The position numbers and the translations under genes are program-made. The notes under the pieces were generated by a model. It saw nothing but the letters and a program-made list of their open reading frames with translations, searched no databases and was not told where the DNA came from. A stretch of DNA of 64,000 bases from contig BROI01000027.1 of assembly GCA_027923505.1 (NCBI GenBank), positions 1 through 64,000 on the forward strand. Direction: 5' to 3'. This document shows, one piece after another, positions 21,998 through 61,516 of the stretch. Within the stretch, counting starts at the first letter, position 1. Each line of letters opens with the position of its first letter. This DNA comes from Mayamaea pseudoterrestris (taxonomy: Eukaryota).

Positions 21998-22012
21998 GAT
22001 CACACAGTCTTG
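21998..22012 (+). promoter_or_regulatory. Putative primer-binding site, family A (non-canonical)
   Basis: GATCACACAGTCTTG lies directly after the LTR and recurs at 23938. It resembles the family B PBS and lacks the canonical TGG start. Confidence 0.6.
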
Positions 22013-22246
22013 GTCTTTACAATCAACTCTCTCGGGCGCTGGTGACGACCACTCCCGTCGTTTCGTTGCACACTACATTGGCAGCGGACATCCCTCGTTC
22101 ATTTCCTGTCCGAGGCTTCAATCTACACTAGTCCGGCAGACGGAGGGATTGAAGACCGAGTCGAATTGCAAGCATCGCTCGGATAGAATCGACTTCCTCG
22201 ATTATTCTCGTGGTATATATTCATCCCGTACCAATCAATCAACAAC

Positions 22247-23937: not shown

Positions 23938-24186
23938 GATCACACAGTCTTGGTCTTTACAAACAACCCTCTCGGGCGCTGGTCGACCGACCACTCCCGT
24001 CGTTCGTTGCACACTACATTGGCAGCGGACATCCCTGGTTCATTTTCTGTCCGAGGCTTCAATCTACAGTAGTCCGGCAGACGGAGGGATTGAAGACCGA
24101 GTTGAGTTGCAAGCATCGCTCGGATAGAATTGATTCCTTGATTATTCTTGCGGTATATATTTAACCCGTACCATTCAACCAACAAC

Positions 24187-30496: not shown

Positions 30497-30828
30497 TACT
30501 CGAACCTCCGTTGCGGTACCAGAAAAGACATCTACTCACAACTACGTCATTGAAATATTGCATGTGTGCCAGCCGCAGGCACGATTAAACAAGATTAGTA
30601 TTCACTATCGTGAATGGTCTTGAAAGAGCCATCTGATCAATCGCTCTTTCTCGACCGATCGTAAATCAACTCACTTTCTAGAGAACTGCTTAATCAATTA
30701 GCATTTTGTAGGATAAGACCCCTGTAGGATAAACCAAGGTAAAGGACTGATCATCCCACTCACTTGGAAACCGACTACAGAGGGTGAGGAATCGTTGCAG
30801 CCGTACGAACTGGAACTGCATCGTGTCA
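30428..30828 (+). repeat. Family A copia 3' LTR (401 bp)
   Basis: Direct repeat of 21597-21997, preceded by the PPT. Confidence 0.95.
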
Positions 30829-33651
30829 GAACACGACACAGTTATTCCGTGCATCGGCACACACCCCATTTCGCCAACACTTTAAGTCGCAATTCCCTGC
30901 CGCCAACGTGATTCGTTTCCACAACGATACGGCGACAGATACCTGGTTTTCCAAGGAAGCCGCCTTTAACGACGGAATCCGCGGCCATGGCTGATGCAAG
31001 ATGATGCAATTGTTTGTTGGCAAGAAGAGTTTGCTGACAAAGGGGTACCCACTGAGAACCGAGAGTGACATGCCCATGGCGCTCGAAGACTTCATTCGAG
31101 ACATTGGCGCTCCCAACTTGCTCATTAGCGATAACTTGCGAGTGCAGCTCGGGAAGCAAGTTGAAACCTTGTTGCGATTCTACGCGATTCGTGACCAACA
31201 GAGCGAGCCCGGATACCAGAACCAGAACCCTGCTGAGCGTCGCATCCAAGAAGTCAAGTCATCAGTCCAGAACATCATGAACCGTACGGGCGCACCTGCT
31301 GGAGCCTGGCTTCTATGCGCACTGTACGTAATCACCTTATTCAACAATCTGGCGACCGAGTCCCTCAACTGGAAGACCCCTACTGAAGCCGCCTTCAACC
31401 GAGTACCCGACATTTCGCCGTTCCTGCAGTTCAGGTTCTGGGAATGAGTCCTGTACGAAGCTGGAGCCGACGAGCCGCCAACATTTCCTCACACCAAGGA
31501 AGCAGCAGGACGCTGGGTCGGCATTGCAGAGAACAAGGGTGACATCCTCACATACCAAGTCCGATCCGATTGGACTGGAATGGTTGTTGTACAATCCAAC
31601 GTTCGTCCCTTCTCCGAAGGACGTAACCTACGCGCTGAAGCCGAAAGCGCTCCTGAACCCAAGTCCGAACAACCATTGTTCGCGGAACCTGTCTTCGACG
31701 CGCGCCCTGCACGTGAACGAGTCCAAGTCAAAACTGTCGACGAGTTTGACGATGAGTATGACCTAGCCAGTCCGGTGTTTGAACACAACCTTACACCGAC
31801 CCCAGCGCCTGATTCTGGGGGAACCGTGGATGAAGACTCATTCACATTGTAAAGCACTGCCGAGATAGCCAGTTTGGATCCCGACGGACCCATGCCATCC
31901 TTTACTCTGGCTGAACTGATGGGATGCACTGTCCTTCTTGACGAGGAAGACGGCTCCACGCGGCGTTACAAGGTTATCGAGCAACTGAACGATTGCGATG
32001 AAGCCAACCATAAGATTATCAAGTTCCGATTGAGCCTCGGTGACGGCGACGTCAACAAGCTTATTACCTACAACGAACTAGCCGACCTGTGCGAGCGGCA
32101 AGATTCTTTACGACTGGGGGACGATGACAACGACGACCAGTACTACAAGTTTGATTTCATTGACGGACATGAAGGTCCACTGACACAAGCCAACGCTACA
32201 TATCACGGCTCATCCTACAACTTGCTCATCCAATGGGCAAATGGCGAGAAGACCTGGGAGCCACTCGCATTGATTATCAAGTCCGACCCTGTTACCATTG
32301 CCGAGTATGGCAAGCGCAAGGGTATGCTGGACAAGGATGGATGGAAGCGCTTGAGGCGCATGGCAGGACGCACTAAACTGTTTAACCGCATGTGCAAGGC
32401 TACCGATGGAACCCTCTGCATGAGCGCAAAGCTTTCAAGAGTTTGGCTGTTCAAGTACTAGAAACCATGTTGGCGAAGGAAGCCACCGCGTCGACGAACG
32501 GGACCACCCTTGACCTGACGCCGAAGAGCTGGATGCCCGTGGCATTCAACAGTACCACTTTCTTATCGGTGCCCTCCAGTGGGCAGTGACTGTCGAACGC
32601 TTCACATTCATTGTTCCGACTGACGACTCGGCCCGACCGCGCCGGGGACACCTGACCGAGCCAGCGAGACTGCGGTTACCTAGCCCGGCGTTGTACTCTA
32701 TGCGAAGCATCGAACGATAGCACGAGCGAACTCACTACAAGTATGGCTGCGATGTCCACTCGAGGCCAAGAGCTTCCAAACAAGGACAATGCCGGTCCCG
32801 AGTTGGACCATTGAAGGCCATACCTTGGTCATCTACAGCGCACTTACTGGATTGCGCACTTCTGGCGCCGCGTTGGCATGGCACTTTGCCGAACCAGACG
32901 CCCGTCGAATGGTTCTGCAAGCGTCAGAATACTGTCGAGACTGCAACGTACGGATCCGAGTTCGTCGTTGCCAAGACCGCGACGGAACAGATTATGGATT
33001 TCCGATACTCCCTATGCATGTTGGGAGTACCTTTGAGTGGACCAGCCTGGATGTTCGGTGACAACGAAAGTGTCAAGAAGTCGTCAACTATCCCGCACTC
33101 CACACTTTCTAAGCGACACAATGCGCTCGCCTACCACCGAGTTCGCGAGGCCATTGCAAGCAATGTTTTGTACTTTGAACACATCTTTGGCAAGCAGAAC
33201 GTCGCCGACATTCTTACCAAGTTCTTGCCGCACGCCACGTTCCGCCCGTTGATCATTCCGATTCTTTTCTGGAAGGGTGATACGGCAAACCGATCGTTGT
33301 CACAAGCCTAGATCAAGGGGGATGACACAATATTATTGAGTTGAGTTGACCTGCGTCTCATGACAAGACGGTTAGCTACCTGTGTTTTGTATGCATTTAA
33401 TCCTGTGCAGGGTTGAGTCACACATGTGACCAAATCCTCACATACATGAGTGAAATCACTGACGATCGAGGCGTGAACCTCGACCGTGAACCCAGTGAGA
33501 ACGAGAAGGAAGCGCACGAGTAGAGTAGCGAGTAACATGCACTATTCTAGCAATTGAGTTTGTTTGTTTGCTTTACGCTGGACGAAGAGGTTGATCGCTC
33601 CTAGTCCATTGTAGTCGCTGGAATAAACGTTCGTCTGATATTATCGTGTCA
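30829..33651 (+). mobile_element. Family B copia 3' fragment (integrase, chromo-like module, scrambled/deleted RT, RNase H, PPT, 3' LTR)
   Basis: Homologous to ~51594-55227. Jumps at ~32400 from just before RT to late RT. Stops at ~30993, 31445, 31849. LTR at 33323-33651. Confidence 0.92.
33323..33651 (+). repeat. Family B LTR (329 bp)
   Basis: TGACACAATA...TATCGTGTCA after PPT AAGGGGGA; several substitutions relative to 48442-48770. Confidence 0.95.
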
Positions 33652-36409: not shown

Positions 36410-37641
36410 TATGGCACTCCTGGTTGCTGCATGTCCCAGCTCTGGCAGCACGTCCAGGGCATCCCCAAGATACCTCTCAAGGATGGACTCGATACATGCC
36501 CCACCTGCCAACAGGCTAAGCTGACTTGTGCCACCCGCGGTCATGACGACTTTAGCCGTGCGACCGTTCCCTTTCAAGGCCTTTCCATCAAACTCCAACC
36601 GGGTCCGCAATCTTACCAGCGTAAACGGCGAGACCTGCTACTGTTTGATTGAAGACCATTACTCTGGCGCCCTGTTCACGCACACTTTTTTGTACCAAAG
36701 CACCACCCATCGCGTATCTCGACAAGTTTCTTGCTGCTCACAACCCAGGAGATGGATGTGATCGCTACGTCCGCTTTGACCTAGGTGGCGAGCTGGGCTG
36801 ATGCACGGCGCTTGTGGAACTGTTCACCACTGCTGGCTATGCTGTCGAAACCACTGTACCTGATTTGTCTCATCAGAACGGCCCCATCGAGCGGCCTCAC
36901 CGGTCCTTTGCCGCTGGAGTACAGACCTTCGTAATTGGCGCCACCCATGAACCAAAATACTGGCCGTACGCACTACATCATTATCTGCGTGTCTTTAATG
37001 CCACCATGCCTCGTGGCGATGACTGCAAGACTCCTTTTGAGCTCTGTGCTGGCCATCAGCCTGACATAACACATTTCAAAAGGTTTGGCTGTCGCCTCTA
37101 CGCTCTGCCCAGCCACGGTCACTCCACCAAGACATTGAACGAAGCTCGCACTGGTGTCTTCCTTGGGTATGCCCGTACCACAAACAATGCATTATATCTT
37201 GACCTCGCTAATGGCCAAGTAAGAACATGCCAGCATGCCGCCTTTGATGAGTCCTTTATCAATCTGCCATTCCATCTTAAACCTCCCAATGCTCGACGCC
37301 TTGATGCCCTTTGCGACTACACAGAAGACCCCAACAAGGTGCTTCTCATTGATCCTACTGACCTTGATCAGGCACTCCTCAAACTCGACATTTTTACCAC
37401 ACATGTTCTATACGACCACCTCTATTACCCTCCCCTTGCGCAACGGAACCGTTGCAGGCCATACGTTTCCGCTATTCATGCCCTTCATTCTACTCAGTTT
37501 TGCAGCCTCCCGGCGTTCCGCAAGAAATTTGTCGGTGCCTACGTTGCCGCTGTTAATGGCACCGTTGACAACGTCCATACTCAGCTCGCAATCCTTGCCA
37601 CCGCCGCCCTCCACACCGGCGTTACACTGGAACTGGCTCCC
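36410..37641 (+). mobile_element. Family C copia relic, integrase part
   Basis: QHVQGIPKI...CPTCQQAKL (pre-integrase/CxxC), YVRFDLGGEL, HQNGPIERPHR, FGCRLYALP...TGVFLGY; stops and frameshifts. Confidence 0.85.
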
Positions 37642-40600
37642 ATAAGGCGATTACGTACAACGCGCACAGGAGCCAGGCTCCAGTGGGTGCGCCCGTACGG
37701 TTCATGATGTTCTGGACAGATGACTTGACTTCTTGGATGCGACGCTCGGCAGGGTTCTGGTTCTGGTATCCAGGCTCGCTCTGTTGGTCACAAATCACGT
37801 AGAATCGTAACAAGGTTTCAACTTGTTTCCCGAGCTGCACTTGCGAGTTATCGCTAATGAGCAAGTCGGGAGCGCCAATGTCTCAAATGAAGTCTTCGAG
37901 CGCCATGGGCATGTCACTCTCGGTTCTCAGTGGGTTCCCCTTCGTTAGCAAACTCTTCTTGCCAACGAACAATTGCATCATCTTGCATCCGCCATGGCCG
38001 CGGATTCCGTCATTAAAGGCGGCTTCCTTGGAAAACCAGGTATCTGTCGCCGTATCGTCGTGGAAACGAATCACGTTGGCGGCAGGGAATCACGACTTAA
38101 AATGTTGGCGAAATGGGGTGTGTGCCGATGCACGGAAAAGCTGTGTCATATTCTTGATTGTGCGCTTGACTCGTTCAAGTGGCGTGTAGCCAAGGTAGGG
38201 TCGAAGTGCTTGGTAGTCAGGTTCTTGTGGCATGATGCGTCGTGCATTGGCTTGGCGCGTCGTATCTGCCCTATTGCGATCGACATGCTGCACCACACGT
38301 TCCACTGAGTTCAAATTGTTCCGGTAGGTGGCGTCGCCGAAGTCGTCCATGCGGGCGTCGACGAAACCATGTTCTTCTTCCAAGTTGTCGAAGCAACGAT
38401 TAAACTCAAGTTCTTCTTCGTTCCATTCATTATCCAACTCCGACGGATCCCAAAGGGTGTCCGCAGAGAAAATGACCATCGGATACATTTCCAACTTTGC
38501 GTCCGTCGGTGGACGCATATCCATACGAGGCAAGCTGTCACGGATTGCCAAGGGGATGGTCTTGCCACAACTGGTGACAATGGCTTGTGCTCCATTCTGG
38601 GAGCGAGCGACGTCGTCGATCAGATGTCCGAACGAACGAAGCTGCGATGGAGCATGAATGGATTCAGCACCGTTGTACAAAGCATACTGGTTGAACTGGC
38701 CAATGATAGGTCCAGTCTGAGTCTCGATCAATGCGACACCAGTTCTGACTTGCAAGTTGCGAACCTTGTGGTCACTCAAACCTGTCACGTTACACGTGTG
38801 GTTGGTAGTACTCATGATTCTCATGTTGCTTCCAGCAAGCCCACCGTTTGCACTGCCATCAATCAGCGATTCTTGGCGAGTCTCGTTGCTGCGAGCTCAA
38901 TTCACATTGTAGCGCACCAATACCATTGTGCTATACCAACGACCGTCGCTTCCCATGAACTCTTGCTGGGTGTTATTTGCAGCTTGAGTGTGAGACGACG
39001 CTGCGTTCGCAAGGAAAGATCTAATCATGTCATCTGGTGCACCTTGAGTGGCTGTCGTCAGGGCAATCGAGACAGCGTCATTCTGATACAGGATTGTACC
39101 AGGCACCGAGGCAGCCGCTTGTGACTGCTGGTTATTCGCGCGATTGCTGTTGTTCGCGCGTCTTGTTGTGGCGAGCGTATTCGTCCTCATTAAGTCGGCT
39201 GAGTCGTTCGTACATCATGTACGACCAGGGGGCCTGCAACAACTGTTCAAAGTTCAGATAATCACCAGGGAATTGTTCCCGATGCGCTTGCATACCGGCT
39301 GCTGGTAGTGGCGTGGAAGAGCCTCGTCCTCCGGAACCGCGGCCCGCTTGGGTGCCGCGTCCACCGTCTCATCCAGCGCCGTGCCCGCCTTGGCTGCCGC
39401 GTCCTCCGCCGTGGCCGGAACCGCGTCCATTGCCACGTCCTTGACCGGAAGTGTTCACGTTCTTCGCTTGGCGGTCGGCGTTCTTCTTGCCCTTGTTCAA
39501 CTTGGCGTTCTTGTTGTCGACGCGCAGAGCTTGCGCGGACAATAGGTCACAAAGATAGTCATAATCTTCCGTTACGACAGCTTCTGGGTTGCCATTTGCA
39601 TTGACGATACGTCATCGTTCAAATGTTAAGTGCTGGTCGAATGTCGTGCACGTGGGGCCAAACTCTTCGTCGCCTTCCACTGCAGCTCGGAGCCAGTAGT
39701 ACCTCTTCTTGTTATCCGTCACTCCAGGATGGAACTCTTTGAGATTCTTCATGAGCTGTTCAATGTAGTTGAGGAACTTGTAGTGCCCCTTTGTCCAGGT
39801 TGAATCTAGGCGAATCGTCGCAAGCTTGGCTTGTAATTCGTTCGCTTGGATGGTAGCTAACCCGTCAGCACCAAACTTGGTTGCAAGTTTGCGATAGACG
39901 CTCTGAGCGTCAGACTTGTCAGCGTACTTCATTAGGAGCAATTGGTATCCAGGTACTTCGAGACAATTGCGAAACGCAGTGTACATGAAGATTTGCTGAT
40001 CCTTGAACTCTTCCTTCTCTTCTTCCGTGACTGGTACGTACTTGCTGTCGAGCACGTTAGAACAGCCATGGAGCTTGGCAATTGCCTTGGTAGACGCACT
40101 CCAACTCAACCACCCGTGGGGATGTTGGAACATTTCGTAGTCCTTGTAATCTCGCTTCGTCTTGACGTTCGAGAAACGACCCTTGGCATCTGCTTCCTTT
40201 TTGGCCTTCTCAGCCTTCATATTCTCATTTTCGAGTTGCTTAGCAAGTAGCTTGGCTTGCTTCTTCTTGGACTCGAGCATGTAGCGACCTTCTTCACGCT
40301 TACGACCAATTTCTTGTTCGGCGAGTATTTCTTGAAACCGTTCAAGCTTGCCTAAATCAAGCGTATACCACTTCTTGGTGTTCGGGGCTCCGTTGTGCAT
40401 GTTAAACCATTCGCATGCATCGAGGATAAGGTTCACGTAGACTGGTGCTAGCTTCGTTTCGTATCGCTGCACCGGGGCATCAGCTACTTGTTCTTTGGCC
40501 GGTTCGTCGCCCGGCTGCGCAGCGTCGGGCTGCGCCGCTTCCGGTTGCTCTTCGCCTAATGGGATAGCAATTCTTTGGGCCCAGTAGGGGGCTTCAAGTT

Positions 40601-41286
40601 GCTCCTTGGTCAATCTCAACATCTGTGTAGTGGTAGTTACATTCCAAAAGAAGAACGATTCTTGGATGTCGCGTCCGAAGACGTTCACGCAGAGCATCCG
40701 CAATGCTTCCGCAGTAACTGAAGCCATGATAGTGAATACCTCGCTTTCCGCAAGCCCTTACTCAAACAACAACCGCTCTCAATGCAGTCAAGCCTTATAC
40801 GATCCTTTTCTACGCACTCGTGCCAAGTATTCGGATTGACAACGCCGCAAGGAATCTGCTCTTTCTCTCTCAAATTCTCAATTCTTTCACTCTCTCTCTC
40901 TTTCGCACAGCTCTCTCAGGTCAAGACAAGCTAGCAAGACTGTTAATCTGACACGATAATATCAGACGAACCTTTATTCCAGCGACTACAATGGACTAAG
41001 AGTGATCAACCTCTTTGTCCAGCGTAAAGCAAACAAACAAACTCAATTGCTAGAATAGTGCATGTTACTCGCTACTCTACTCGTGCTCTTCTTCGTCATT
41101 CTCACTGGGTTCACGGTCAAGGTTCACGCCTCGATTGCCTCGATTGTCAGCGATTTCACTCATGTATGTGAGGATTCGGTCACAAGTGTGACTCAACCCT
41201 GCACAGGATTAAATGCATACAAAACACAGGTAGCTACCTGTCTTGTCATGAGACGCAGGTCAACTCAACTCAATAATATTGTGTCA
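37642..41286 (-). mobile_element. Family B copia 5' fragment, reverse orientation (5' LTR, PBS, gag, protease, start of integrase), nested in family C
   Basis: LTR 40949-41286 (338 bp, includes a 9-bp duplication GCCTCGATT). PBS 40934-40948. gag starts at 40727 with a CGA>TGA stop at 39612. Truncated at 37642 inside the integrase. Confidence 0.93.
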
Positions 41287-44800: not shown

Positions 44801-45239
44801 GACCATATTAAATTTATTTTTATTATTATTCATAACCTGACTAACAGGCCGATTGCAACTCTGCCCAATCTAAAGAGACCCGCTAACATCCAAACGTCTT
44901 CCATTCCTATCAATTTGAAGCAGCTCCTTTGAGAAGTTTCATCTGTTTTGTACATTTTTATCAGGTTTGGTCCATCATTTCACCTTTGCTGGCGAGACCT
45001 CGCCGAGTAGCTGGCTTGCTGCCTTTTGCCATCCAGTAGGCGTTTCGTATTGTGGGTAATTAAGGTGCTTTGGCGTGTAGACACCATTGAGAATTGATGA
45101 ACAAATAGACGGGTGGATCAGGTGATGTGATGGATCGCCATGGTGCACCTGTTGGCGAGGCAGGTTGGTGGTGACGGAGACGAATTGCGCCAAAACTTGT
45201 GATGTCGCCTGGATATCCAACACTACCTTTTCGTGCTGT

Positions 45240-47900
45240 CGCCTTACCAACCCTGCACTGTGAGACGGTGCTTGGTTAGTTTTTCTTTCCATTGGGACGC
45301 TGCTCTTGGTCAGAATGTCTGCTCTCTGCTCCTTTGTGTCGATGATCAGGATGCTGATCTCGCCGGAGTTGACGTTTTGGCGGAAATGGTAGTATTGCAC
45401 AATGATGTGCTTGGTGCGGGGGCGCATTTTGTGAGCGTTGCTGAGCTCGAGGCATGCGCTGTTGTCCTCAAACACTTTGCAGTGCTAGGTGGGGATGGTA
45501 GTCTCGAACTTGAATTCCTTGGTTAATTCCATCAATGGGATGACTTCCGGATTGCGGTGCGGAGTGCAATGTACTCCGACTCCGTGGTGGATAGAGCTAG
45601 CTGAGTCTGCATCTTGCTCTCCCACACCAGCGGGCAGCCGGCGTAGTATATGATGAAGCCCGTTCAGTACCTGGCTGTGTCGGGGTCATTTGGCGCCTCG
45701 GTTGGGTCCCAGTCGCCTATCCAGTTGCGTCGACAGAGTCGTCGGTGGGTCTGTATATCATGCCTTTGTCGCGGGATCCTGCTAGGTACCTGCAGATCCA
45801 CTTGATGGGCCTTGCGGAGCTCTTGTTTGGGGTTGCTGGAGAATCGCCTGAGGCGTGAGCAGCGGCGTTCCAGGTGGTTGAGCTTGCCAAGCACCAACCG
45901 ATAGTCAAAGCTGTTGTCGAATGGCTCTGAGCCTGTGTGCCGCATAAGGATCTTTGAGGTGCATGCTGGGGTCTTCTTGATTGCGACGTAAGGTAGGTCG
46001 AGGGCCACATCCTTCAGAACTTGCTCAATCTAAGGCTGTTTGGTGGAATGGATCCCTTATCCCTTTCGCTTGATCTTGACACCAAAAAATCTCCCAGCTT
46101 GTCTTCTACTGTGAGGTTGAGACTGGTGTGGCTTCTATCTCACCGTTGTTAAGATCACAAAGGATGCTATTGTTACAGTAGAGCACGTACAGTGATGACC
46201 CTCGGAAGAATAGACACATGTCCTTGCTCTGACTGAAGCCCACACTCTTAAGTTTAGCCACAAGATGCTTGTTCCATGTTCGTCCAGAGTCGCAGCCTCC
46301 GTAAATTGTCTTCTTGATGTGCAGGTATTGCCTGGACTGGCACCGGGGTAAGCGAAACCTTTGAAGATCTTCATGAAGACAGTGGTGGACTTGGCTTCGG
46401 CCTGGTTATATGCGTGGACGAAGTCTATCTGATGAGTGTGCCCCTTTAGTTGCAGCGTTTTGGCAATGACTAGCCGGATGGTGGCCCACGAGGCAACTGG
46501 AGCATACCAGTAGGTCTGGTCATAGTGGACTCCCTTGATTTGCTTGGCGCCATCTAGGTTGAGGCAAGCCCCACTTGTAGATGTCTCCCATGGCAATTTA
46601 TCTTTTCCTCTCCATGGCCCACACTGCAGGCAGCGGAGCCACTCCCTTGGGCACTTGAGTGCGAGAAACTATCTCCCATATGCCGTTGCTGGCCTGGTTG
46701 TCTATATCCTTTGAGCGGCCTGTAGGAACTGTACTTGCTTGGTCCTTGGATTGCATGGTTTGGTGCAGTACATGATGTCTTTGGCGGATCCTGAGGGCAA
46801 TGGTGCAGGAGGAACAAACTCTTTAGGCTTGGCAAGCGCCTCAAAGGCCACCAGGCTCCCTTGCGCGTCCTGCAGTTCATGCGCATGGCTTTGGCTAGAT
46901 ATTCATAGTTAGGTGGAGTTTGAGCAGCTCCATCCGCATGGCCTGGATCATCTCTGTGACGTTACGGCCTCCTCTGAGTTGTGATCAATACTGTCAACCT
47001 TCCTTGGTCAGCTTGCGCTGGCATTGGGAGTGCTGCAGAGGTGGGCTAGCTGCCACCCTTGTTGAATTATTGGCAGGATCTTCAGTTGGTGGAGCAGTCA
47101 GTGGGGTTGCACTGGTGGGTGGAGTGTCCAGCAGAGCTGAATCCGCTGGCACGGTTGTATAGCCTTGGGATTGGCAAAATTTGCCTTGGGTGGGAGGCCG
47201 TTTGCCTCGGGGAAGGAAACTTGGGAGGCCCGACTGAGCAGGCTTTTGTTGTCCGGATGTAGTGCCTCTGGGAATGACTCGCCCTTGTTGGTCGTGAGGA
47301 AATGACACTTGTCTTGCCAGTGTGATGTGGGAGGGCAGTGCAAGGGTGATATCTTTGGACTCATTAGCCATTCGCAGGGGATACAGCCAAAGGTTTGCAT
47401 TGTAGGCGGAGGGCCACCTTCTCGTGGTGTGTATCATCATGGTGCAGGCTTGATCCTGCAGCTCCCTTATGCATTGCTCGGTGATGCCGTTCTGGAAACG
47501 GGCATGGACCCTGCAGAGGGTGAGTACCTGGCCGCTCCTTGCGCAGGTGGCTCGCCATTGATTGTCAGCAAAGAAGCCATTGTCAGCTCTATAATGTTGG
47601 ACTTTCACTCCCACTAAACTAGCATGCACTTTATAAACACGGACTTGGCCTCCAGTGTCTCTTCTGCTGAAAAGGCTTTCTGGAGGTGGACGTAGGAGAA
47701 GTGGCTGAATTGGTCCACGAATACTGTAGAGCACTGGTAGCGCCGCTTGGTAGGGGTTCCTCTGAGCTGGGCTATGAGGATGGCATGTAAGACACCAGTT
47801 GGTCAATTGAGACACACTCTCCAGGCTTGGTGGCCTGCAGTTTGGCGTTGGCCTGTGACAACCCCTTGGGCTTGGATTGCCATGAAGTGCCTACCGTTGG
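45240..47900 (-). mobile_element. Family D copia relic (integrase, RT, RNase H), heavily decayed
   Basis: HYRADNGFF...FQNGITEQCIRELQ (integrase), DGAKQIKGVHYDQTY..APVASWATIRL...QIDFVHAY (RT), FEDNSACLEL...RPRTKHI...ADILTK (RNase H). No LTRs identified. Confidence 0.85.
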
Positions 47901-48770
47901 AGGTAAACAACAGATATGTTGACACACGCATGCGTGCAGACATGCAAGTGGAGCATGCTTCGACCGTTAATCCAAGACTGAAGCTTCCTTACAAAGCCGC
48001 CAGTGGGAATGCATCAATGCTGTTTGTAGCAAGTGAGCTCGTGTTGACTTATGTAATACAAATGCACATGGCAGCACGCTTTCACTCTCAAATTTCAAGT
48101 CAACGTATTGACTGGTACTGGTAGACAAGATTGAAATATAACTCGCACTCATGCTTTTTTATATGAATGCAAGTGCACAATCCAAACTGATCAAAAAATT
48201 TAAAAGTCCAAAGCCAACTGACAGACACGACTGATTTACATAGCTACAAACCGTTATGATTTGCGAATCAAGAGAATTCAACAGAAGGCAAAATTTCTTG
48301 GCACGAGTCCATCCCTTCAGTTGCTCACGCATCGCACCTCCACAAAATTGATCCATCTACAAAGTGGTGTTGGCCCATCTTCTTGAAAGCGGTTCATTCA
48401 TCTTGACTAAACATGAGCGGCAACCAAGAAGGACCTGGTAGTGACACAATATTATTGAGTTGAGTTGACCTGCGTCTTATGACAAGACGGTTAGCTACCT
48501 GTGTTTTGTATGCATTTAATCCTGTGCAGGGTTGAGTCACACTTGTGACCGAATCCTCACATACATGAGTGAAATCGCTGACGATCGAGGCGTGAACCTC
48601 GACCGTGAACCCAGTGAGAACGAGAAAGAAGCGCACGAGTAGAGTAGCGAGTAACATGCACTATTCTAGCAATTGAGTTTGTTTGTTTGCTTTACGCTGG
48701 ACGAAGAGGTTGATCGCTCCGAGTCCATTGTAGTCGCTGGAATAAAGGTTCGTCTGATATTATCGTGTCA

Positions 48771-48785
48771 GATTAACAGTCTTGC
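48771..48785 (+). promoter_or_regulatory. Putative primer-binding site, family B, complementary to a tRNA-Asn(GTT) anticodon arm
   Basis: GATTAACAGTCTTGC; the reverse complement G-CAAGA-CTGTTAA-TC reads as anticodon stem + Asn loop. Identical in the diverged copy at 40934-40948. Confidence 0.7.
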
Positions 48786-48989
48786 TAGCTTGTCTTGACC
48801 TGAGAGAGCTGTGCGAAAGAGAGAGAGTAAAAGAATCGAGAAATTGAGAGAGAAAGAGCAGATTCCTTGCGGCGTCGTCAATCCGAATACTTGGCACGAG
48901 CGCGTAGAACAGGATCGTATAAGGCTCGACTGCATTGAGAGCGGTTGTTGTGTAAGAAAGGACTTGCGGAAAGCGAGGTATTCACTATC

Positions 48990-51900
48990 ATGGTTGCGAT
49001 TACTGCGGAAGCTTTGCAGCTTCTCTGCACGAACGTTTTCGGACGAGACATCCAAGAAGCGTTCTTGTTTTGGAATGTAACCACCACTACCCAGATGTTG
49101 AGATTGACCAAGGAGCAACTTGAAGCCCCCTACTGGGTCGACAGAGCCGCCATTCCAGCTGGCGCTGAGCAAGAAGAAGGCGCGCAACCCGACGATGCGC
49201 AGCCGGGCGACGAGCCGGCCGAAGAACCGGCCGAGGAGCAAGCAGCCGCCGCACCAGAACGATACGAAACGACACTAGCACCAGTCTACGTGAACCTCAT
49301 CCTCGATGCATGCGAATGGTTTACCATGCACGACGGACCCCCGAACACCAAGAAATGGGCGTTGCTGGACTTAGGCAAGCTCGAGCGATACCAAGCGGTT
49401 CTCGCGGAACAAGAAATCGCGCGGAAGCGTGAAGAAGGATACTACGTACTCGAGTCCAAGAAGAAGCAAGCCGAGCTACTTGCCAAGCAACTCGAAAATG
49501 AGAATGTGAAGGCCGAGAAGGCCGAAAAGGAAGAAGATGCCAAGGGTCGTTTCTCGAATCTCAAGACGAAGCGAGATTACAAGGACTACAAAACGTTCCA
49601 ACATCCCCACGCGTGGTTGAGTTGGAGCGCGTCTACCAAGGCAATCGCCAAGCTCCATGGCTGTTCTAACGTGCTCGACAGCAAGTACGTACCAGTCACG
49701 GAACAAGAGAAGGAAGAGTTCGAGAACCAGCAAATCTTCATGTACACTGCGTTTCGCAATTGCCTCGAAGTCCCTGGATACCAGTCGCTCTTAATGAAGT
49801 ACAGCGACAAGTCTGACGCTCAGAGCGTCTGCGCGAACTCGCGACCCATTTGGTTCGTTCGAGGCCACCACCCAAGACCGAATCTGCAAGAGCGACGCTC
49901 GCGTCGCCTAGATTCGACCTGGACGAAAGGGCACTACAAGTTCCTAAACTACATCGAACAGCTCATGAAGAATCTCGAAGAGTTCCGTCCTGGAGTGACG
50001 GATGACAAGAAGAAGTACTACTGGCTCCGAGCTGCAGTGGAGGGTGACGAAGAATTCGGCCCCACGTGCACGACGTTCGACCAGCACCTGTTATTTGAAC
50101 GACGACGCATCACCAGTGCAAACGGTGACCCAGACGCCGTCGTAACGGAAGATTATGACTATCTTTTCGACATGTTGTTGCAGCAGGCTCTGCGCGTCGA
50201 CAACAAAAACGCCAAGTTGAATAAGGGCAAGAAGAACGCCGACCGCCAAGCGAACAACGCGAACACTTCCGGGCAAGGACGTGGTAATGGACGCGGTTCC
50301 GGTCGCGGCGGAGGACGCGGCGGACAAGGCGGACGCGGCGGTGGACGAGACGGTGGACGCGGTTCCCAAGTGAGCCGCGGTTCCGGAGGACGAGGCTCTT
50401 CCGCGCCACTACCAGCAGCCGGTACGCAAGCGCATCGGGAACGATTCCCTGGTGATTATCTGAACTTTGAACAGTTGTTGCAGAACCCCTGGTCGTACAT
50501 GTCGTATGAACGACTCGGCCGACTTAACGAGGACGAATACGCTCAGCTCATGGCTCGACGCGAAGCCGTCCCAAGACCCGCCACGACAAGACGCGCGAAC
50601 AATGGCAACCGCGCGAATAACCAGCAGTCACAAGCGGCTGCATCGGTGCCTGGTACAATCTTGTATCAGAATGACGCTGTCTCGATCGCCCCGACGACAG
50701 CCACTCAAGGTGCACCGGATGACATGATTAGATCTTTCCTTGCGAACGCCGCGTCGTCTCGCACTCAAGCTGCGAATAACACCCAGCAAGAGTTTATGGG
50801 AAGCGACGGCCGTCGGTACCGCGCAATGGTATCGGTGCGCTACACTGTGAATCGAGCTCGCAGCAACGAGACCCGCCAAGGATCGCTGATTGACGGCGGT
50901 GCGAACGGTGGACTCGCTGGAAGCGATATGAGAATCTTGAGTACTACCAACCACACGTGTAACGTGACAGGTTTGAGCGACCACACGGTTCGCGACCTCC
51001 AAGTCGGAACTGGCGTCGCATTGATTGAGACTCGGACTGGACCCATTATCGGTCAGTTCAACCAGTATGCTTTGTACGACGGCGCTGAATCCATTCATGC
51101 TCCATCGCAGCTTCGTTCGTTCGGCCATCTGATCGACGACGTCGCTCGCTCCCAGAATGGAGCACAAGCCATTGTCACCAGTTGTGGCAAGACCATCCCC
51201 TTGGCGATCCGCGACGGCTTGCCTCGTATGGATATGCGCGGCGGACGCAGAGTTGGAAATGTATCCGACGGTCATTTTCTCTGCGGACACCCTTTGGGAT
51301 CCGGCGGAATTGGATAATGAATGGAACGAAGAAGAACTTGAGTTTAATCGTCGCTTCGACGAATTGGAAGAAGCCCACGGTTTCGTCGACGCCCGCATGG
51401 ACGACTTCGGCGACGCCACCTACCGGAACAACATGAACTCAGTGGAACGTGTGGTGCAGTATGTCGATCGCAATCAGGCTGATACGACGCGCCAAGCCAA
51501 TGCACGACGCATAATGCCACAAGAACCTGACTACCAAGCGCTTCGACCCTACCTTGGCTACACGCCACTTGAACGAGTCAAGCGCACCATCAAGAATACG
51601 ACACAGCTTTTCCGTGCATCGGCACACACCCCATTTCGCCAACACTTTAAGTCGCGATTCCCTGCCGCCAATGTGGTTCGTTTCCATGACGATACGGCGA
51701 CAGATACCTGGTTTTCCAAGGAAGCCGCCTTTAACGACGGAATCCGCGGCCATGGCGGATGCAAGATGATGCAACTGTTCGTCGGCAAGAAGAGTCTGCT
51801 GACGAGGGGATACCCACTGAGAACCGAGAGTGACATGCCCATGGCGCTCGAAGACTTCATTCGAGACATTGGCGCTCCCGATTTGCTCATTAGCGATAAC

Positions 51901-54892
51901 TCGCGAGTGCAGCTCGGGAAGCAAGTTGAAACCTTGTTGCGATTCTACGCGATTCGTGACCAACAGAGCGAGCCCGGATACCAGAACCAGAACCCTGCCG
52001 AGCGTCGCATCCAAGAAGTCAAGTCATCAGTCCAGAACATCATGAACCGTACGGGCGCACCCGCTGGAGCCTGGCTCCTATGCGCGCTGTACGTAATCGC
52101 CTTATTCAACAATCTGGCGACCGAGTCCCTCAACTGGAAGACCCCTACTGAAGCCGCCTTCAACCGAGTACCCGACATTTCGCCGTTCCTGCAGTTCAAG
52201 TTCTGGGAACGAGTCCTGTACGAAGCTGGAGCCGACGAGCCGCCGACATTTCCTCACACCAAGGAAGCAGCAGGACGCTGGGTCGGCATTGCAGAGAACA
52301 AGGGTGACATCCTCACGTACCAAGTTCGATCTGATCGGACTGGAATGGTTGTCGTCCGATCCAATGTTCGTCCCTTCTCCGAAGGACGTAACCTACGCGC
52401 TGAAGCCGAAAGCGCCCCTGAACCCGAGTCCGAACGACCACTGTTCGCGGAACCTGTCTTTGACGCGCGCCCTGCGCGTGAACGAGTCCAAGTCGAAACT
52501 GTCGACGAGTTTGACGATGAGTATGACCTAGTCGGTCCGGTGTTTGAACACGACCTTACACCGACCCCAGCGCCTGATTCTGGGGAACCGTGGATGAAGA
52601 CGCATTCACGTTGGAAAGCGCTGCCGAGTTAGCCGGTTTGGATCCCGACGGACCCATGCCGTCCTTTACTCCGGCTGAACTGATGGGACGCACTGTCCTT
52701 CTTGACGAGGAAGATGGCTCCACGCGACGTTACAAGGTTATCGAGCAACTGAACGATCGCGATGAAGCCAACCACAAGATTATCAAGTTCCGATTGAGTC
52801 TCGGCGACGGCGACGTCGACGAGCTTATCACCTACAACAAACTGGCCGACCTGTGCGAGCGGCAAGATTCTTTACGACTGGGGGACGATGACAACGACGA
52901 CCAGTACTACAAGTTTGATTTCATTGACGGACATGAAGGTCCACTGACACAAGCCGACGCTACGTATCGCGGCTCATCCTACAACTTGCTCATCCAATGG
53001 GCAAATGGCGAGAAGACCTGGGAGCCACTCGCATTGATTATCAAGTCCGACCCTGTGACCGTTGCCGAGTACGGCAAGCGCAAGGGTATGCTGGACAAGG
53101 ATGGATGGAAGCGCTTGAAGCGCATGGCAGGACGCACTAAAATGTTTAACCGCATGTGCAAGGCTGCAAAGAAGAACCGTGTCCAAGAAGCGCGTTTCAA
53201 GTTTGGCGTTCAAGTTCCTAATACCTGGAAGGAAGCGAACCGCCTCGACGCTGCTAATGGAAACACCCTGTGGGCTGACGCCGTCAAGACTGAGATGGAG
53301 CAGCTACATGAGTACGACACTTTCATCGACAAGGGCATCGGTGCCTTCATGGAAAGTGACTGGAAGCGCATCAACGCGCATCTTGTTTTCGACTGCAAGA
53401 ACGATCTACGACGTAAGGCCCGACTCGTCGCCGGGGGACATTTGACCGCTCCGCCCAAGGACTCCGCCTACTCCGGCGTTGTATCTATGCGAAGCATTCG
53501 AACCATAGCACTGTTAGCTGAACTGAACGACCTCAAGTTTTGGGCTGCCGATGTCGGTAACGCCTACCTCGAGGCCAAGACCAAGGAAAAGGTCTACATT
53601 GTTGCCGGTCCCGAGTTTGGACCATTGGAAGGCCATACCTTGGTCATCTACAAGGCACTATACGGATTGCGCACTTCTGGCGCGCGTTGGCATGAGCACT
53701 TTGCCGACACACTCCGCGATATTGGATTCTACCCAAGCTACGCGGACCCTGACGTCTGGATGAAAGACTGTGGCACTCACTACGAGTACGTCGGCGTGTT
53801 CGTCGACGATCTGGCTATGGCCATGAAAGATCCACAAGCCTTCACAGACCTCCTCAAGGAGAAGTACAAGTACAAGTTGAAGGGCGTTGGTGACATCAAG
53901 TACCACCTTGGAGCCGACTTCTATCGTGATCCCGATGGAACCCTCTGCATGAGCGCGAAGACCTACGTCGGTCGCATGCTCAAGAACTACGAGACCATGT
54001 TTGGCGAGAAACCACGCAAGCGCAAGTCACCGCTTGACGACGGGGACCACCCCGAACTTGACCTTACCGAAGAGCTGGATGCCCGTGGCATTCAACAGTA
54101 CCAGTCTCTTATCGGTGCCCTCCAGTGGGCAGTGACCCTATGTCGACTAGACATTCATTGTGCCGTAATGACACTTGGCCGATTCCGCTGCGCCCCGCGC
54201 CGTGGACACCTGGACCGAGCCAAGCGAGTCTGCGGTTACCTAGCTGAGTACCCTGATGCGGCGATTCGTTTCCGGACGAAGTGCGTCGATCACGGGGAAT
54301 CTACCCATTATGATTGGTTTCAACCTGTCTACGGCAACTCAAGCGAAGAGCTTCCGTGGAACATGCCGATCCCGAAGGGCAAGCCTGTGCAACTAACTAC
54401 CTTTATGGACGCGAACCTGTACCATGATTACACTACTGGACGTTCCGCAATGGGAGTCCTGCATTTCCTGAACCAGACGCCCGTCGAATGGTTCTGCAAG
54501 CGTCAGAATACTGTCGAGACTGCAACGTACTGATCCTAGTTCGTCGCTCGCCAAGACCGCGACCGGAACAGATTATGGGTTTCCGATACTCCCTAAGCAT
54601 GTTGGGAGTTCCTTTGAGTGGACCAGCCTGGATGTTCGGCGACAACGAAAGTGTCAAGAAGTCGTCAACGATCCCGCACTCCACACTTTCTAAGCGACAC
54701 AATGCGCTCGCCTACCACCGAGTTCGCGAGGCCATTGCAAGCAATGTTCTGTACTTTGAGCACATCTTCGGCAAGCAGAACGTCGCCGACGTTCTTACCA
54801 AGTTCTTGCCGCATGCCACGTTCCGACCCCTGATCATTCCGATTCTTTTCTGGAAGGGTGATACGGCAAACCGATCGTTGTCACAAGCCTAG
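48990..54892 (+). CDS. Family B gag-pol polyprotein, broken here at ~51240, ~52585 and ~54530 (breaks look like consensus errors)
   Basis: RGG Gag; protease LIDGGANGG; integrase TATDTWF / ISDNS / QNPAERR; IQWANGEKTWEPL module; RT ADVGNAYL / KALYGLRTSG / FVDD; RNase H MDAN / GDNES / NVADVLTK. Sister fragments in this window are in frame at all three breaks. Confidence 0.85.
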
Positions 54893-55225
54893 ATCAAGGG
54901 GGATGACACAATATTATTGAGTTGAGTTGACCTGCGTCTTATGACAAGACGGTTAGCTACCTGTGTTTTGTATGCATTTAATCCTGTGCAGGGTTGAGTC
55001 ACACTTGTGACCGAATCCTCACATACATGAGTGAAATCGCTGACGATCGAGGCGTGAACCTCGACCGTGAACCCAGTGAGAACGAGAAAGAAGCGCACGA
55101 GTAGAGTAGCGAGTAACATGCACTATTCTAGCAATTGAGTTTGTTTGTTTGCTTTACGCTGGACGAAGAGGTTGATCGCTCCGAGTCCATTGTAGTCGCT
55201 GGAATAAAGGTTCGTCTGATATTAT

Positions 55226-58200
55226 CGGTTGTTGTGTAAGAAAGGACTTGCGGAAAGCGAGGTATTCACTATCATGGTTGCGATTACTGCGGAAGCTTTG
55301 CAGCTTCTCTGCACGAACGTTTTCGGACGAGACATCCAAGAAGCGTTCTTGTTTTGGAATGTAACCACCACTACCCAGATGTTGAGATTGACCAAGGAGC
55401 AACTTGAAGCCCCCTACTGGGTCGACAGAGCCGCCATTCCAGCTGGCGCTGAGCAAGAAGAAGGCGCGCAACCCGACGATGCGCAGCCGGGCGACGAGCC
55501 GGCCGAAGAACCGGCCGAGGAGCAAGCAGCCGCCGCACCAGAACGATACGAAACGACACTAGCACCAGTCTACGTGAACCTCATCCTCGATGCATGCGAA
55601 TGGTTTACCATGCACGACGGACCCCCGAACACCAAGAAATGGGCGTTGCTGGACTTAGGCAAGCTCGAGCGATACCAAGCGGTTCTCGCGGAACAAGAAA
55701 TCGCGCGGAAGCGTGAAGAAGGATACTACGTACTCGAGTCCAAGAAGAAGCAAGCCGAGCTACTTGCCAAGCAACTCGAAAATGAGAATGTGAAGGCCGA
55801 GAAGGCCGAAAAGGAAGAAGATGCCAAGGGTCGTTTCTCGAATCTCAAGACGAAGCGAGATTACAAGGACTACAAAACGTTCCAACATCCCCACGCGTGG
55901 TTGAGTTGGAGCGCGTCTACCAAGGCAATCGCCAAGCTCCATGGCTGTTCTAACGTGCTCGACAGCAAGTACGTACCAGTCACGGAACAAGAGAAGGAAG
56001 AGTTCGAGAACCAGCAAATCTTCATGTACACTGCGTTTCGCAATTGCCTCGAAGTCCCTGGATACCAGTCGCTCTTAATGAAGTACAGCGACAAGTCTGA
56101 CGCTCAGAGCGTCTGCGCGAACTCGCGACCCATTTGGTTCGTTCGAGGCCACCACCCAAGACCGAATCTGCAAGAGCGACGCTCGCGTCGCCTAGATTCG
56201 ACCTGGACGAAAGGGCACTACAAGTTCCTAAACTACATCGAACAGCTCATGAAGAATCTCGAAGAGTTCCGTCCTGGAGTGACGGATGACAAGAAGAAGT
56301 ACTACTGGCTCCGAGCTGCAGTGGAGGGTGACGAAGAATTCGGCCCCACGTGCACGACGTTCGACCAGCACCTGTTATTTGAACGACGACGCATCACCAG
56401 TGCAAACGGTGACCCAGACGCCGTCGTAACGGAAGATTATGACTATCTTTTCGACATGTTGTTGCAGCAGGCTCTGCGCGTCGACAACAAAAACGCCAAG
56501 TTGAATAAGGGCAAGAAGAACGCCGACCGCCAAGCGAACAACGCGAACACTTCCGGGCAAGGACGTGGTAATGGACGCGGTTCCGGTCGCGGCGGAGGAC
56601 GCGGCGGACAAGGCGGACGCGGCGGTGGACGAGACGGTGGACGCGGTTCCCAAGTGAGCCGCGGTTCCGGAGGACGAGGCTCTTCCGCGCCACTACCAGC
56701 AGCCGGTACGCAAGCGCATCGGGAACGATTCCCTGGTGATTATCTGAACTTTGAACAGTTGTTGCAGAACCCCTGGTCGTACATGTCGTATGAACGACTC
56801 GGCCGACTTAACGAGGACGAATACGCTCAGCTCATGGCTCGACGCGAAGCCGTCCCAAGACCCGCCACGACAAGACGCGCGAACAATGGCAACCGCGCGA
56901 ATAACCAGCAGTCACAAGCGGCTGCATCGGTGCCTGGTACAATCTTGTATCAGAATGACGCTGTCTCGATCGCCCCGACGACAGCCACTCAAGGTGCACC
57001 GGATGACATGATTAGATCTTTCCTTGCGAACGCCGCGTCGTCTCGCACTCAAGCTGCGAATAACACCCAGCAAGAGTTTATGGGAAGCGACGGCCGTCGG
57101 TACCGCGCAATGGTATCGGTGCGCTACACTGTGAATCGAGCTCGCAGCAACGAGACCCGCCAAGGATCGCTGATTGACGGCGGTGCGAACGGTGGACTCG
57201 CTGGAAGCGATATGAGAATCTTGAGTACTACCAACCACACGTGTAACGTGACAGGTTTGAGCGACCACACGGTTCGCGACCTCCAAGTCGGAACTGGCGT
57301 CGCATTGATTGAGACTCGGACTGGACCCATTATCGGTCAGTTCAACCAGTATGCTTTGTACGACGGCGCTGAATCCATTCATGCTCCATCGCAGCTTCGT
57401 TCGTTCGGCCATCTGATCGACGACGTCGCTCGCTCCCAGAATGGAGCACAAGCCATTGTCACCAGTTGTGGCAAGACCATCCCCTTGGCGATCCGCGACG
57501 GCTTGCCTCGTATGGATATGCGCGGCGGACGCAGAGTTGGAAATGTATCCGACGGTCATTTTCTCTGCGGACACCCTTTGGGATCCGGCGGAATTGGATA
57601 ATGAATGGAACGAAGAAGAACTTGAGTTTAATCGTCGCTTCGACGAATTGGAAGAAGCCCACGGTTTCGTCGACGCCCGCATGGACGACTTCGGCGACGC
57701 CACCTACCGGAACAACATGAACTCAGTGGAACGTGTGGTGCAGTATGTCGATCGCAATCAGGCTGATACGACGCGCCAAGCCAATGCACGACGCATAATG
57801 CCACAAGAACCTGACTACCAAGCGCTTCGACCCTACCTTGGCTACACGCCACTTGAACGAGTCAAGCGCACCATCAAGAATACGACACAGCTTTTCCGTG
57901 CATCGGCACACACCCCATTTCGCCAACACTTTAAGTCGCGATTCCCTGCCGCCAATGTGGTTCGTTTCCATGACGATACGGCGACAGATACCTGGTTTTC
58001 CAAGGAAGCCGCCTTTAACGACGGAATCCGCGGCCATGGCGGATGCAAGATGATGCAACTGTTCGTCGGCAAGAAGAGTCTGCTGACGAGGGGATACCCA
58101 CTGAGAACCGAGAGTGACATGCCCATGGCGCTCGAAGACTTCATTCGAGACATTGGCGCTCCCGATTTGCTCATTAGCGATAACTCGCGAGTGCAGCTCG

Positions 58201-61200
58201 GGAAGCAAGTTGAAACCTTGTTGCGATTCTACGCGATTCGTGACCAACAGAGCGAGCCCGGATACCAGAACCAGAACCCTGCCGAGCGTCGCATCCAAGA
58301 AGTCAAGTCATCAGTCCAGAACATCATGAACCGTACGGGCGCACCCGCTGGAGCCTGGCTCCTATGCGCGCTGTACGTAATCGCCTTATTCAACAATCTG
58401 GCGACCGAGTCCCTCAACTGGAAGACCCCTACTGAAGCCGCCTTCAACCGAGTACCCGACATTTCGCCGTTCCTGCAGTTCAAGTTCTGGGAACGAGTCC
58501 TGTACGAAGCTGGAGCCGACGAGCCGCCGACATTTCCTCACACCAAGGAAGCAGCAGGACGCTGGGTCGGCATTGCAGAGAACAAGGGTGACATCCTCAC
58601 GTACCAAGTTCGATCTGATCGGACTGGAATGGTTGTCGTCCGATCCAATGTTCGTCCCTTCTCCGAAGGACGTAACCTACGCGCTGAAGCCGAAAGCGCC
58701 CCTGAACCCGAGTCCGAACGACCACTGTTCGCGGAACCTGTCTTTGACGCGCGCCCTGCGCGTGAACGAGTCCAAGTCGAAACTGTCGACGAGTTTGACG
58801 ATGAGTATGACCTAGTCGGTCCGGTGTTTGAACACGACCTTACACCGACCCCAGCGCCTGATTCTGGGGAACCGTGGATGAAGACGCATTCACGTTGGAA
58901 AGCGCTGCCGAGTTAGCCGGTTTGGATCCCGACGGACCCATGCCGTCCTTTACTCCGGCTGAACTGATGGGACGCACTGTCCTTCTTGACGAGGAAGATG
59001 GCTCCACGCGACGTTACAAGGTTATCGAGCAACTGAACGATCGCGATGAAGCCAACCACAAGATTATCAAGTTCCGATTGAGTCTCGGCGACGGCGACGT
59101 CGACGAGCTTATCACCTACAACAAACTGGCCGACCTGTGCGAGCGGCAAGATTCTTTACGACTGGGGGACGATGACAACGACGACCAGTACTACAAGTTT
59201 GATTTCATTGACGGACATGAAGGTCCACTGACACAAGCCGACGCTACGTATCGCGGCTCATCCTACAACTTGCTCATCCAATGGGCAAATGGCGAGAAGA
59301 CCTGGGAGCCACTCGCATTGATTATCAAGTCCGACCCTGTGACCGTTGCCGAGTACGGCAAGCGCAAGGGTATGCTGGACAAGGATGGATGGAAGCGCTT
59401 GAAGCGCATGGCAGGACGCACTAAAATGTTTAACCGCATGTGCAAGGCTGCAAAGAAGAACCGTGTCCAAGAAGCGCGTTTCAAGTTTGGCGTTCAAGTT
59501 CCTAATACCTGGAAGGAAGCGAACCGCCTCGACGCTGCTAATGGAAACACCCTGTGGGCTGACGCCGTCAAGACTGAGATGGAGCAGCTACATGAGTACG
59601 ACACTTTCATCGACAAGGGCATCGGTGCCTTCATGGAAAGTGACTGGAAGCGCATCAACGCGCATCTTGTTTTCGACTGCAAGAACGATCTACGACGTAA
59701 GGCCCGACTCGTCGCCGGGGGACATTTGACCGCTCCGCCCAAGGACTCCGCCTACTCCGGCGTTGTATCTATGCGAAGCATTCGAACCATAGCACTGTTA
59801 GCTGAACTGAACGACCTCAAGTTTTGGGCTGCCGATGTCGGTAACGCCTACCTCGAGGCCAAGACCAAGGAAAAGGTCTACATTGTTGCCGGTCCCGAGT
59901 TTGGACCATTGGAAGGCCATACCTTGGTCATCTACAAGGCACTATACGGATTGCGCACTTCTGGCGCGCGTTGGCATGAGCACTTTGCCGACACACTCCG
60001 CGATATTGGATTCTACCCAAGCTACGCGGACCCTGACGTCTGGATGAAAGACTGTGGCACTCACTACGAGTACGTCGGCGTGTTCGTCGACGATCTGGCT
60101 ATGGCCATGAAAGATCCACAAGCCTTCACAGACCTCCTCAAGGAGAAGTACAAGTACAAGTTGAAGGGCGTTGGTGACATCAAGTACCACCTTGGAGCCG
60201 ACTTCTATCGTGATCCCGATGGAACCCTCTGCATGAGCGCGAAGACCTACGTCGGTCGCATGCTCAAGAACTACGAGACCATGTTTGGCGAGAAACCACG
60301 CAAGCGCAAGTCACCGCTTGACGACGGGGACCACCCCGAACTTGACCTTACCGAAGAGCTGGATGCCCGTGGCATTCAACAGTACCAGTCTCTTATCGGT
60401 GCCCTCCAGTGGGCAGTGACCCTATGTCGACTAGACATTCATTGTGCCGTAATGACACTTGGCCGATTCCGCTGCGCCCCGCGCCGTGGACACCTGGACC
60501 GAGCCAAGCGAGTCTGCGGTTACCTAGCTGAGTACCCTGATGCGGCGATTCGTTTCCGGACGAAGTGCGTCGATCACGGGGAATCTACCCATTATGATTG
60601 GTTTCAACCTGTCTACGGCAACTCAAGCGAAGAGCTTCCGTGGAACATGCCGATCCCGAAGGGCAAGCCTGTGCAACTAACTACCTTTATGGACGCGAAC
60701 CTGTACCATGATTACACTACTGGACGTTCCGCAATGGGAGTCCTGCATTTCCTGAACCAGACGCCCGTCGAATGGTTCTGCAAGCGTCAGAATACTGTCG
60801 AGACTGCAACGTACTGATCCTAGTTCGTCGCTCGCCAAGACCGCGACCGGAACAGATTATGGGTTTCCGATACTCCCTAAGCATGTTGGGAGTTCCTTTG
60901 AGTGGACCAGCCTGGATGTTCGGCGACAACGAAAGTGTCAAGAAGTCGTCAACGATCCCGCACTCCACACTTTCTAAGCGACACAATGCGCTCGCCTACC
61001 ACCGAGTTCGCGAGGCCATTGCAAGCAATGTTCTGTACTTTGAGCACATCTTCGGCAAGCAGAACGTCGCCGACGTTCTTACCAAGTTCTTGCCGCATGC
61101 CACGTTCCGACCCCTGATCATTCCGATTCTTTTCTGGAAGGGTGATACGGCAAACCGATCGTTGTCACAAGCCTAGATCAAGGGGGATGACACAATATTA

Positions 61201-61516
61201 TTGAGTTGAGTTGACCTGCGTCTTATGACAAGACGGTTAGCTACCTGTGTTTTGTATGCATTTAATCCTGTGCAGGGTTGAGTCACACTTGTGACCGAAT
61301 CCTCACATACATGAGTGAAATCGCTGACGATCGAGGCGTGAACCTCGACCGTGAACCCAGTGAGAACGAGAAAGAAGCGCACGAGTAGAGTAGCGAGTAA
61401 CATGCACTATTCTAGCAATTGAGTTTGTTTGTTTGCTTTACGCTGGACGAAGAGGTTGATCGCTCCGAGTCCATTGTAGTCGCTGGAATAAAGGTTCGTC
61501 TGATATTATCGTGTCA
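55226..61516 (+). mobile_element. Exact tandem duplicate (+6284 bp) of the family B element, without PBS or leader, ending in a complete LTR 61188-61516
   Basis: All ORFs repeat at +6284 with identical translations (48945/55229, 51157/57441, 52590/58874). The junction ATTATCG|GTTGTTGTG has CG microhomology. Confidence 0.93.

Follow-up and report, generated by a model that had tools for sequence, protein, structure and literature searches.

A satellite array and a nest of LTR retrotransposons

The window, by which we mean the whole 64-kb stretch of DNA analysed here, starts with a 169-bp satellite that covers positions 2-9223 and 12861-21596, with about 106 units in all and 94 % matches. The array is interrupted for about 3.6 kb at 9224-12860, where none of the ORFs has a Pfam family. 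A 169-bp satellite is unusual compared to what is said of model diatom genomes; its unit is about one nucleosome repeat in length. The rest of the window, from position 21597, consists of nested LTR retrotransposons, and the features discussed below are collected in Table 1.

The family A copia-type element at 21597-30828 is young and inserted in the satellite array. Its 401-bp LTRs (3' LTR at 30428-30828) are 99.25 % identical, and it contains an LTR fragment at 23737-23937. Family B is represented by a tandem LTR-internal-LTR-internal-LTR array at 48442-61516, by a diverged and truncated copy on the opposite strand and by a further LTR. We read 48442-61516 as a tandem array because the purine run AAGGGGGA stands immediately upstream of the LTRs at 54904 and 61188, as it does at the LTR at 33323. 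The second unit carries a 178-bp deletion (the equivalent of 48766-48943) with CG microhomology, which removes the last 5 bp of the LTR, the primer-binding site (PBS) and about 158 bp of leader. No target-site duplication was found at the ends of the array, where the 5-base flanks are GGTAG and GAACC.

Table 1. Positions of LTRs, open reading frames and candidate primer sites in the window
Feature	Position	Strand	Remarks
Family A site GATCACACAGTCTTGG, adjoining the 401-bp 5' LTR 21597-21997	21998..22013	+	
Second family A site GATCACACAGTCTTGG, after LTR fragment 23737-23937	23938..23953	+	LTR fragment 89 % identical to family A LTR
Further family B LTR	33323..33651	+	97.9 % identical
ORF between retroelement fragments	36814..37707	+	Retroviral-polymerase SH3-like domain, PF25597, E 2.3e-12
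Predicted PBS of the diverged family B copy	40934..40948	-	Same 15 nt as at 48771
5' LTR of the diverged, truncated family B copy	40949..41286	-	93.8 % identical to the LTR at 48442
Family B 5' LTR, unit 1	48442..48770	+	329 bp, TGACA...TGTCA
Predicted PBS of family B	48771..48785	+	Complementary to tRNA-Asn(GUU) 26-40 (16 nt to position 41 with A48770)
ORF1, presumed gag-protease part	48945..51317	+	790 aa; no Pfam family
ORF2, integrase-like D...D(35)E by eye	51157..52632	+	491 aa; in the +1 frame with respect to ORF1 and ORF3
ORF3, copia-type reverse transcriptase	52590..54533	+	647 aa; RVT_2, E 5.5e-26
Polypurine tract AAGGGGGA, directly before the middle LTR	54896..54903	+	
Middle LTR of the tandem array	54904..55227	+	100 % identical to the 48442 LTR over 324 bp
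3' LTR of the tandem array	61188..61516	+	100 % identical to 48442-48770

The coding region of the first unit (48945-54533) consists of three ORFs that overlap, the second in frame +1 and the other two in frame 0, and ORF3 ends 370 bp before the next LTR. No Pfam family was found in ORF1 or ORF2 even at E values up to 1, and a search of PDB sequences with ORF2 gave no meaningful match. Judged from the integrase-like D,D35E arrangement upstream of the reverse transcriptase, together with the RVT_2 match of the latter, family B is a Ty1/copia-type element. With three ORFs in two frames the copy at 48442 may not be autonomous. The second tandem unit has an ORF of 790 aa as well (55229-57601), which was compared to ORF1 by length and start codon alone and agrees in both.

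To place the reverse transcriptase we scored 8000 candidates and retained 1807 relatives at E values up to 0.001. The best 75 of these 1807 relatives show 48-61 % identity over most of the query and all belong to PF07727; a sequence from the diatom Ditylum brightwellii (54 % identity) is among them, one of the few to which an organism name is attached. Viral contigs contained no relative of the reverse transcriptase, whether the query was the single protein or an alignment of 15 sequences. When the end of the LTR and the site that follows it were used together as a 16-mer, eight matches were found in viral contigs, none of them after an LTR-like TGTCA end. Judged by their flanks, these eight are chance matches.

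The site that follows the family B LTR

The sequence GATTAACAGTCTTGC begins at the first base after the final LTR base (A48770), so that the junction at 48770/48771 reads TGTCA/GATTAAC... and the site is flush with the 5' LTR. A second GATTAACAGTCTTGC lies directly after the LTR of the diverged copy, which runs from 41286 to 40949 on the minus strand. At up to two mismatches the window contains these two matches in total, both adjoining an LTR, compared to a mean of 0.16 in shuffled windows; two or more matches were obtained in 0 of 100 shuffles. Both intact family B 5' LTR junctions in the window thus carry the site (2/2), the number being limited to two because the third junction (55227) has its site deleted.

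The conservation of the site between the two copies adds little, given that the 244 bp surrounding it are 96 % identical anyway; downstream of these 244 bp the identity falls to 87 %. The first-pass annotation had reported a 15-mer without TGG after the LTR and had pointed to its preservation in the diverged copy. We confirmed the sequence and the coordinates of the first site and the presence of the second, but the preservation carries little weight as evidence with flanks so similar.

TGG is absent from the first 34 bases 3' of the 5' LTR at 48442-48770, which rules out a primer formed by the 3' end of a tRNA. The same absence would suit self-priming of the Tf1 type, in which the 5' end of the transcript folds back onto the site and is cut into the primer, and the end of U5 can indeed form a small hairpin with the first three bases of the site in the predicted fold. 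Tf1-type self-priming needs about 11 nt of the transcript 5' end to be complementary to the site, however, and the LTR is without any complement of at least 8 nt to the first 25 bases that follow it. The best candidate is one 7-mer complementary to 48785-48791, which overlaps the site by the last base alone. In addition, the RNA fold of 48740-48860 is no better than that of shuffled sequences (z -0.09). We consider self-priming extremely unlikely; it and the tRNA 3' end were the alternatives named in the earlier annotation, and neither gained support.

The reverse complement of the site has the layout of a tRNA anticodon arm, with G26, a 5-nt stem strand CAAGA, a loop CTGTTAA in which GTT corresponds to positions 34-36, and TC at positions 39-40. 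To look for this arm in real tRNA genes, we extended the complement by the three bases needed to pair the whole stem and searched public metagenome contigs and viral contigs with the resulting 18-mer, using ARAGORN to call tRNA genes. In metagenome contigs a tRNA-Asn(GTT) gene was called over the 18-mer in 62 of 74 matches, corresponding to 44 distinct tRNA-Asn genes. Seventeen of these genes have an encoded CCA, which is the bacterial or phage style of tRNA gene, and 27 are without it, several of the latter continuing into runs of T. In viral contigs the 18-mer fell within a tRNA-Asn gene in all 32 matches. These proportions argue that the arm deduced from the site is a real and widespread tRNA-Asn arm, in agreement with the earlier proposal that the reverse complement is an anticodon arm with a GTT loop.

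In the reference tRNA-Asn gene (L001) ARAGORN places the anticodon at position 34, and the site accordingly pairs with positions 26-40, or with 26-41 if A48770 is included. By our own arithmetic, with about 3000 internal tRNA registers available, the probability of a match for a given 15-mer is about 3e-6.

Several of the viral-contig records are the same as metagenome matches. Of the 32 viral contigs (L103-L134), two are named as giant-virus bins, and algal viruses may carry a tRNA-Asn with this arm.

A probable host tRNA-Asn gene and the predicted primer

The 64-kb window contains no tRNA genes. Of the words sampled from window positions 41300-50500, assembly X1 contains 0.71 and assembly X2 contains 0.70, and one of the two may be where the window comes from. 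We aligned the contigs of X1, X2, X4 and X5 to the L001 tRNA-Asn gene at 80 % likeness. X1 and X2 each yielded one contig of 418 nt that matches L001 positions 7-64 without a gap, a stretch that takes in the D arm, the entire anticodon arm, the variable loop and the greater part of the T arm. The contig is identical to L001 at 57 of these 58 positions, the one difference being unlocated within 7-64. On the tRNA strand the ends of the contig provide a perfectly paired 7-bp acceptor stem (GCACCAT/ATGGTGC), G73 and a run of T, and the contig has the look of a nuclear tRNA gene transcribed by polymerase III.

From this match over positions 7-64 with a single difference, the host very probably has a tRNA-Asn with the arm in question, as the first-pass annotation had anticipated. 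A priori, the chance that the single difference falls inside the paired stretch is 15 in 58. We infer that it lies outside positions 26-40, because the site agrees with L001 at 15 of 15 positions, because an isolated stem change would leave a base unpaired and because base 65 of the host gene, in the loose end of the contig, calls for a compensating change at position 49.

A second tRNA gene was found in X1, X2 and X4, with five differences over positions 8-48 (41 nt, L001:136-176). Its D arm and anticodon arm are close to those of tRNA-Asn, but it has a different acceptor stem and A73, and its identity could be Lys, Ile, Thr or His. This second, different tRNA is the only one aligned to L001 in X4, and none of the X5 contigs aligned to the L001 tRNA-Asn.

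We propose that minus-strand synthesis of this Ty1/copia-type LTR retrotransposon is primed at the 15 bases that follow its 5' LTR and that the primer for this site is probably a 5' fragment of the host tRNA-Asn(GUU) ending at position 40 or 41. Priming from a tRNA-Asn 5' half had been suggested before the present analysis, and both the match to the anticodon arm and the host tRNA gene speak for it. Since the site is complementary to the anticodon arm, the primer would have to be a 3'-truncated tRNA. By analogy with copia and Ty5, the tRNA would be cleaved in the 3' strand of the anticodon stem, and the last 15-16 nt of the fragment (G26, stem positions 27-31, the whole anticodon loop and positions 39-40 or 39-41) would anneal to the site. 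The reverse transcriptase would then extend the 3'-OH of the fragment into U5 and R.

A fragment ending at position 40 would fit a primer that is removed exactly at the RNA-DNA junction. An end at position 41 would suit a mechanism that leaves one ribonucleotide on the minus strand, as happens in HIV-1. Between 48651-48990 and the rest of the L001 tRNA there is no second pairing of at least 7 nt, and hence no bipartite site is seen. Q34 and t6A37 are modifications to be expected in mature tRNA-Asn, and both would fall inside the predicted duplex of primer and site, which we count against the reading. In the tRNA-iMet primer of copia, t6A37 likewise lies inside the paired stretch.

One alternative is that the resemblance to tRNA-Asn is fortuitous or that the primer is a different one, the site binding some other host RNA or nothing. 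The evidence for the host tRNA comes from contigs of X1 and X2, and another RNA with the same 15 bases may exist; the host contig has its one unlocated mismatch to L001, and for the related family A site, which has ACAGTCTTG in common with the family B site, none of 13 matches in viral contigs lay within a tRNA. Against this stand the match at 15 of 15 positions (16 with the last LTR base) to a canonical anticodon arm in the copia/Ty5 class of register, the placement of the 18-mer within tRNA-Asn genes in both contig collections and the presence of a matching tRNA gene in the host assemblies. On balance we judge such a coincidence or substitute primer to be improbable.

It is also conceivable that the site is a relic, made for the tRNA-Asn of another host (through horizontal transfer) or of an ancestor, and now inexact. 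The unlocated host difference would be compatible with this, as would the finding that contigs classed as viral, including the two labelled as giant-virus bins, have many tRNA-Asn genes of this kind. However, identity among the three LTRs of the tandem array is 100 %, so that the last copying was recent, and over the aligned part the host tRNA departs from the reference at a single position. We regard a relic as very improbable.

Finally, the site could mainly be the target of a small RNA derived from tRNA-Asn that restrains the element, rather than a place of priming. At the primer sites of mouse retroviruses, 3' tRNA fragments act as such restraints, and any 5' fragment of tRNA-Asn would pair with the site described here. 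Fragments covering the D loop and the anticodon have been reported in one diatom, and in the supplement of the P. tricornutum small-RNA paper the row for Asn-GTT gives counts alone, without sequence. Exactly here, though, an LTR element must have its primer site, and no other candidate is present. Targeting by small RNAs would therefore add to priming and not replace it, and as the main function of the site it has hardly any probability in our view.

If priming by a tRNA-Asn fragment is confirmed, transposition of family B would depend on a specific tRNA cleavage. Such cleavage could be sought under the stresses said to activate diatom retrotransposons.

Known and proposed half-tRNA primers and the family A variant

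Drosophila copia and yeast Ty5 belong to the genus Hemivirus, and the primer of copia stops after the first two bases of the anticodon-stem 3' strand. Family B resembles these elements in being of Ty1/copia type and in having a site that is flush with the 5' LTR, without TGG and complementary to an anticodon arm. It differs from them in the tRNA, which is the initiator tRNA-Met in copia and Ty5 and would be tRNA-Asn(GUU) here, the complement of the site having GTT and not CAT in the loop. A further difference is that the primer was demonstrated biochemically in those systems and is deduced from sequence in ours. In the narrow sense of Hemivirus, with its initiator tRNA-Met, family B would lie outside the copia/Ty5 group. 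The half-tRNA primer of copia and the internal cleavage of tRNA-iMet for Ty5 are described in passages of PMC5371799.

Primer sites for half molecules of tRNAs other than tRNA-Met are already in print. In Neumann et al. 2019 (PMC6317226), sites for half-molecule tRNA-Met are given for Osser, Bryco and Gymco-II and a site for 1/2 tRNA-Ile for Bianca, in 92 % of 260 elements; tRNA-Asn figures in their survey as a 3'-end primer alone, in 2 % of elements. Bianca resembles family B as a copia lineage with a half-tRNA site that was recognised in silico and is not for tRNA-Met, and differs in belonging to green plants and in the use of tRNA-Ile. For the fungal copia clade FunCo1, Donnart et al. 2017 (PMC5445492) describe the site ATTAAGAGTCT as complementary to an internal region of tRNA-Lys. 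This site and ATTAACAGTCT, at 48772-48782 of the window, are one base apart, the differing base lying opposite anticodon position 34. FunCo1 is likened to family B here by the sequence of the site alone and differs from it in host group (Pezizomycotina) and tRNA, which is tRNA-Lys(CUU). A review of Candida elements lists internal matches to tRNA-Arg(UCU) and to tRNA-iMet as primer sites, Arg being that of Candida gamma. The Candida elements are thus similar to family B in having internal tRNA sites, one of them non-Met, and differ in being from yeast and in the tRNA involved.

Half-tRNA priming and the use of a tRNA other than tRNA-Met are therefore known, and the non-Met primer stressed in the first-pass annotation is not new as such. 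What appears to be new is the combination with tRNA-Asn and with diatoms. Full-text literature searches for tRNA-Asn halves or primer sites, and for primer sites or tRNAs of diatom copia elements, returned no description of the site. The CoDi clades (Maumus et al. 2009, PMC2806351) are likewise diatom copia elements, and the reverse transcriptase of family B has the Ditylum relative mentioned above; a term search of the main text of that founding paper found no passage on a PBS or a tRNA. Our reading adds diatoms and tRNA-Asn to the range of internal priming in copia elements and offers a concrete, testable primer for an abundant diatom family. The gain is incremental, since both the mechanism and the use of non-Met tRNAs were known.

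The family A element provides a variant of the site. The sequence GATCACACAGTCTTG, noticed earlier as a variant, is present at 21998 and at 23938, in both cases directly after ...TGTCA. The family A site is conserved and probably functional, because it recurs unchanged behind an LTR fragment with no more than 89 % identity. We tried by hand to fold its complement into an anticodon arm and in none of the registers tried did it give a standard loop of 7 nt.

It had been suggested that the family A sequence is the complement of a His arm with one extra base and that it marks a switch of primer. We found no support for this in viral contigs: neither the complement of the family A site (0 of 13 matches) nor the guessed His arm (0 of 7) was located in a tRNA, compared to 32 of 32 for the Asn arm. 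One locus among the former two sets has a neighbouring tRNA-Leu, the match itself not being called as a tRNA.

The half-tRNA primers proposed so far (iMet, Ile, Lys(CUU), Arg(UCU) and now Asn(GUU)) all decode codons that start with A. The tRNAs for such codons share U36, t6A37 and usually A38, and these features are thus common to the proposed primers. We hypothesize, tentatively and with more doubt than confidence, that the cut that makes the primer, or its acceptance by the reverse transcriptase, depends on this shared loop. A text search of the literature and a term search of one review found no statement of the rule on A-starting codons. If the dependence is true, copia lineages could switch primer through one or two base changes in the site. 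The single base that separates the FunCo1 site from that of family B would be an example of such a switch, and the variant seen in family A could represent another such step. The site also supplies a simple marker for sorting diatom copia lineages.
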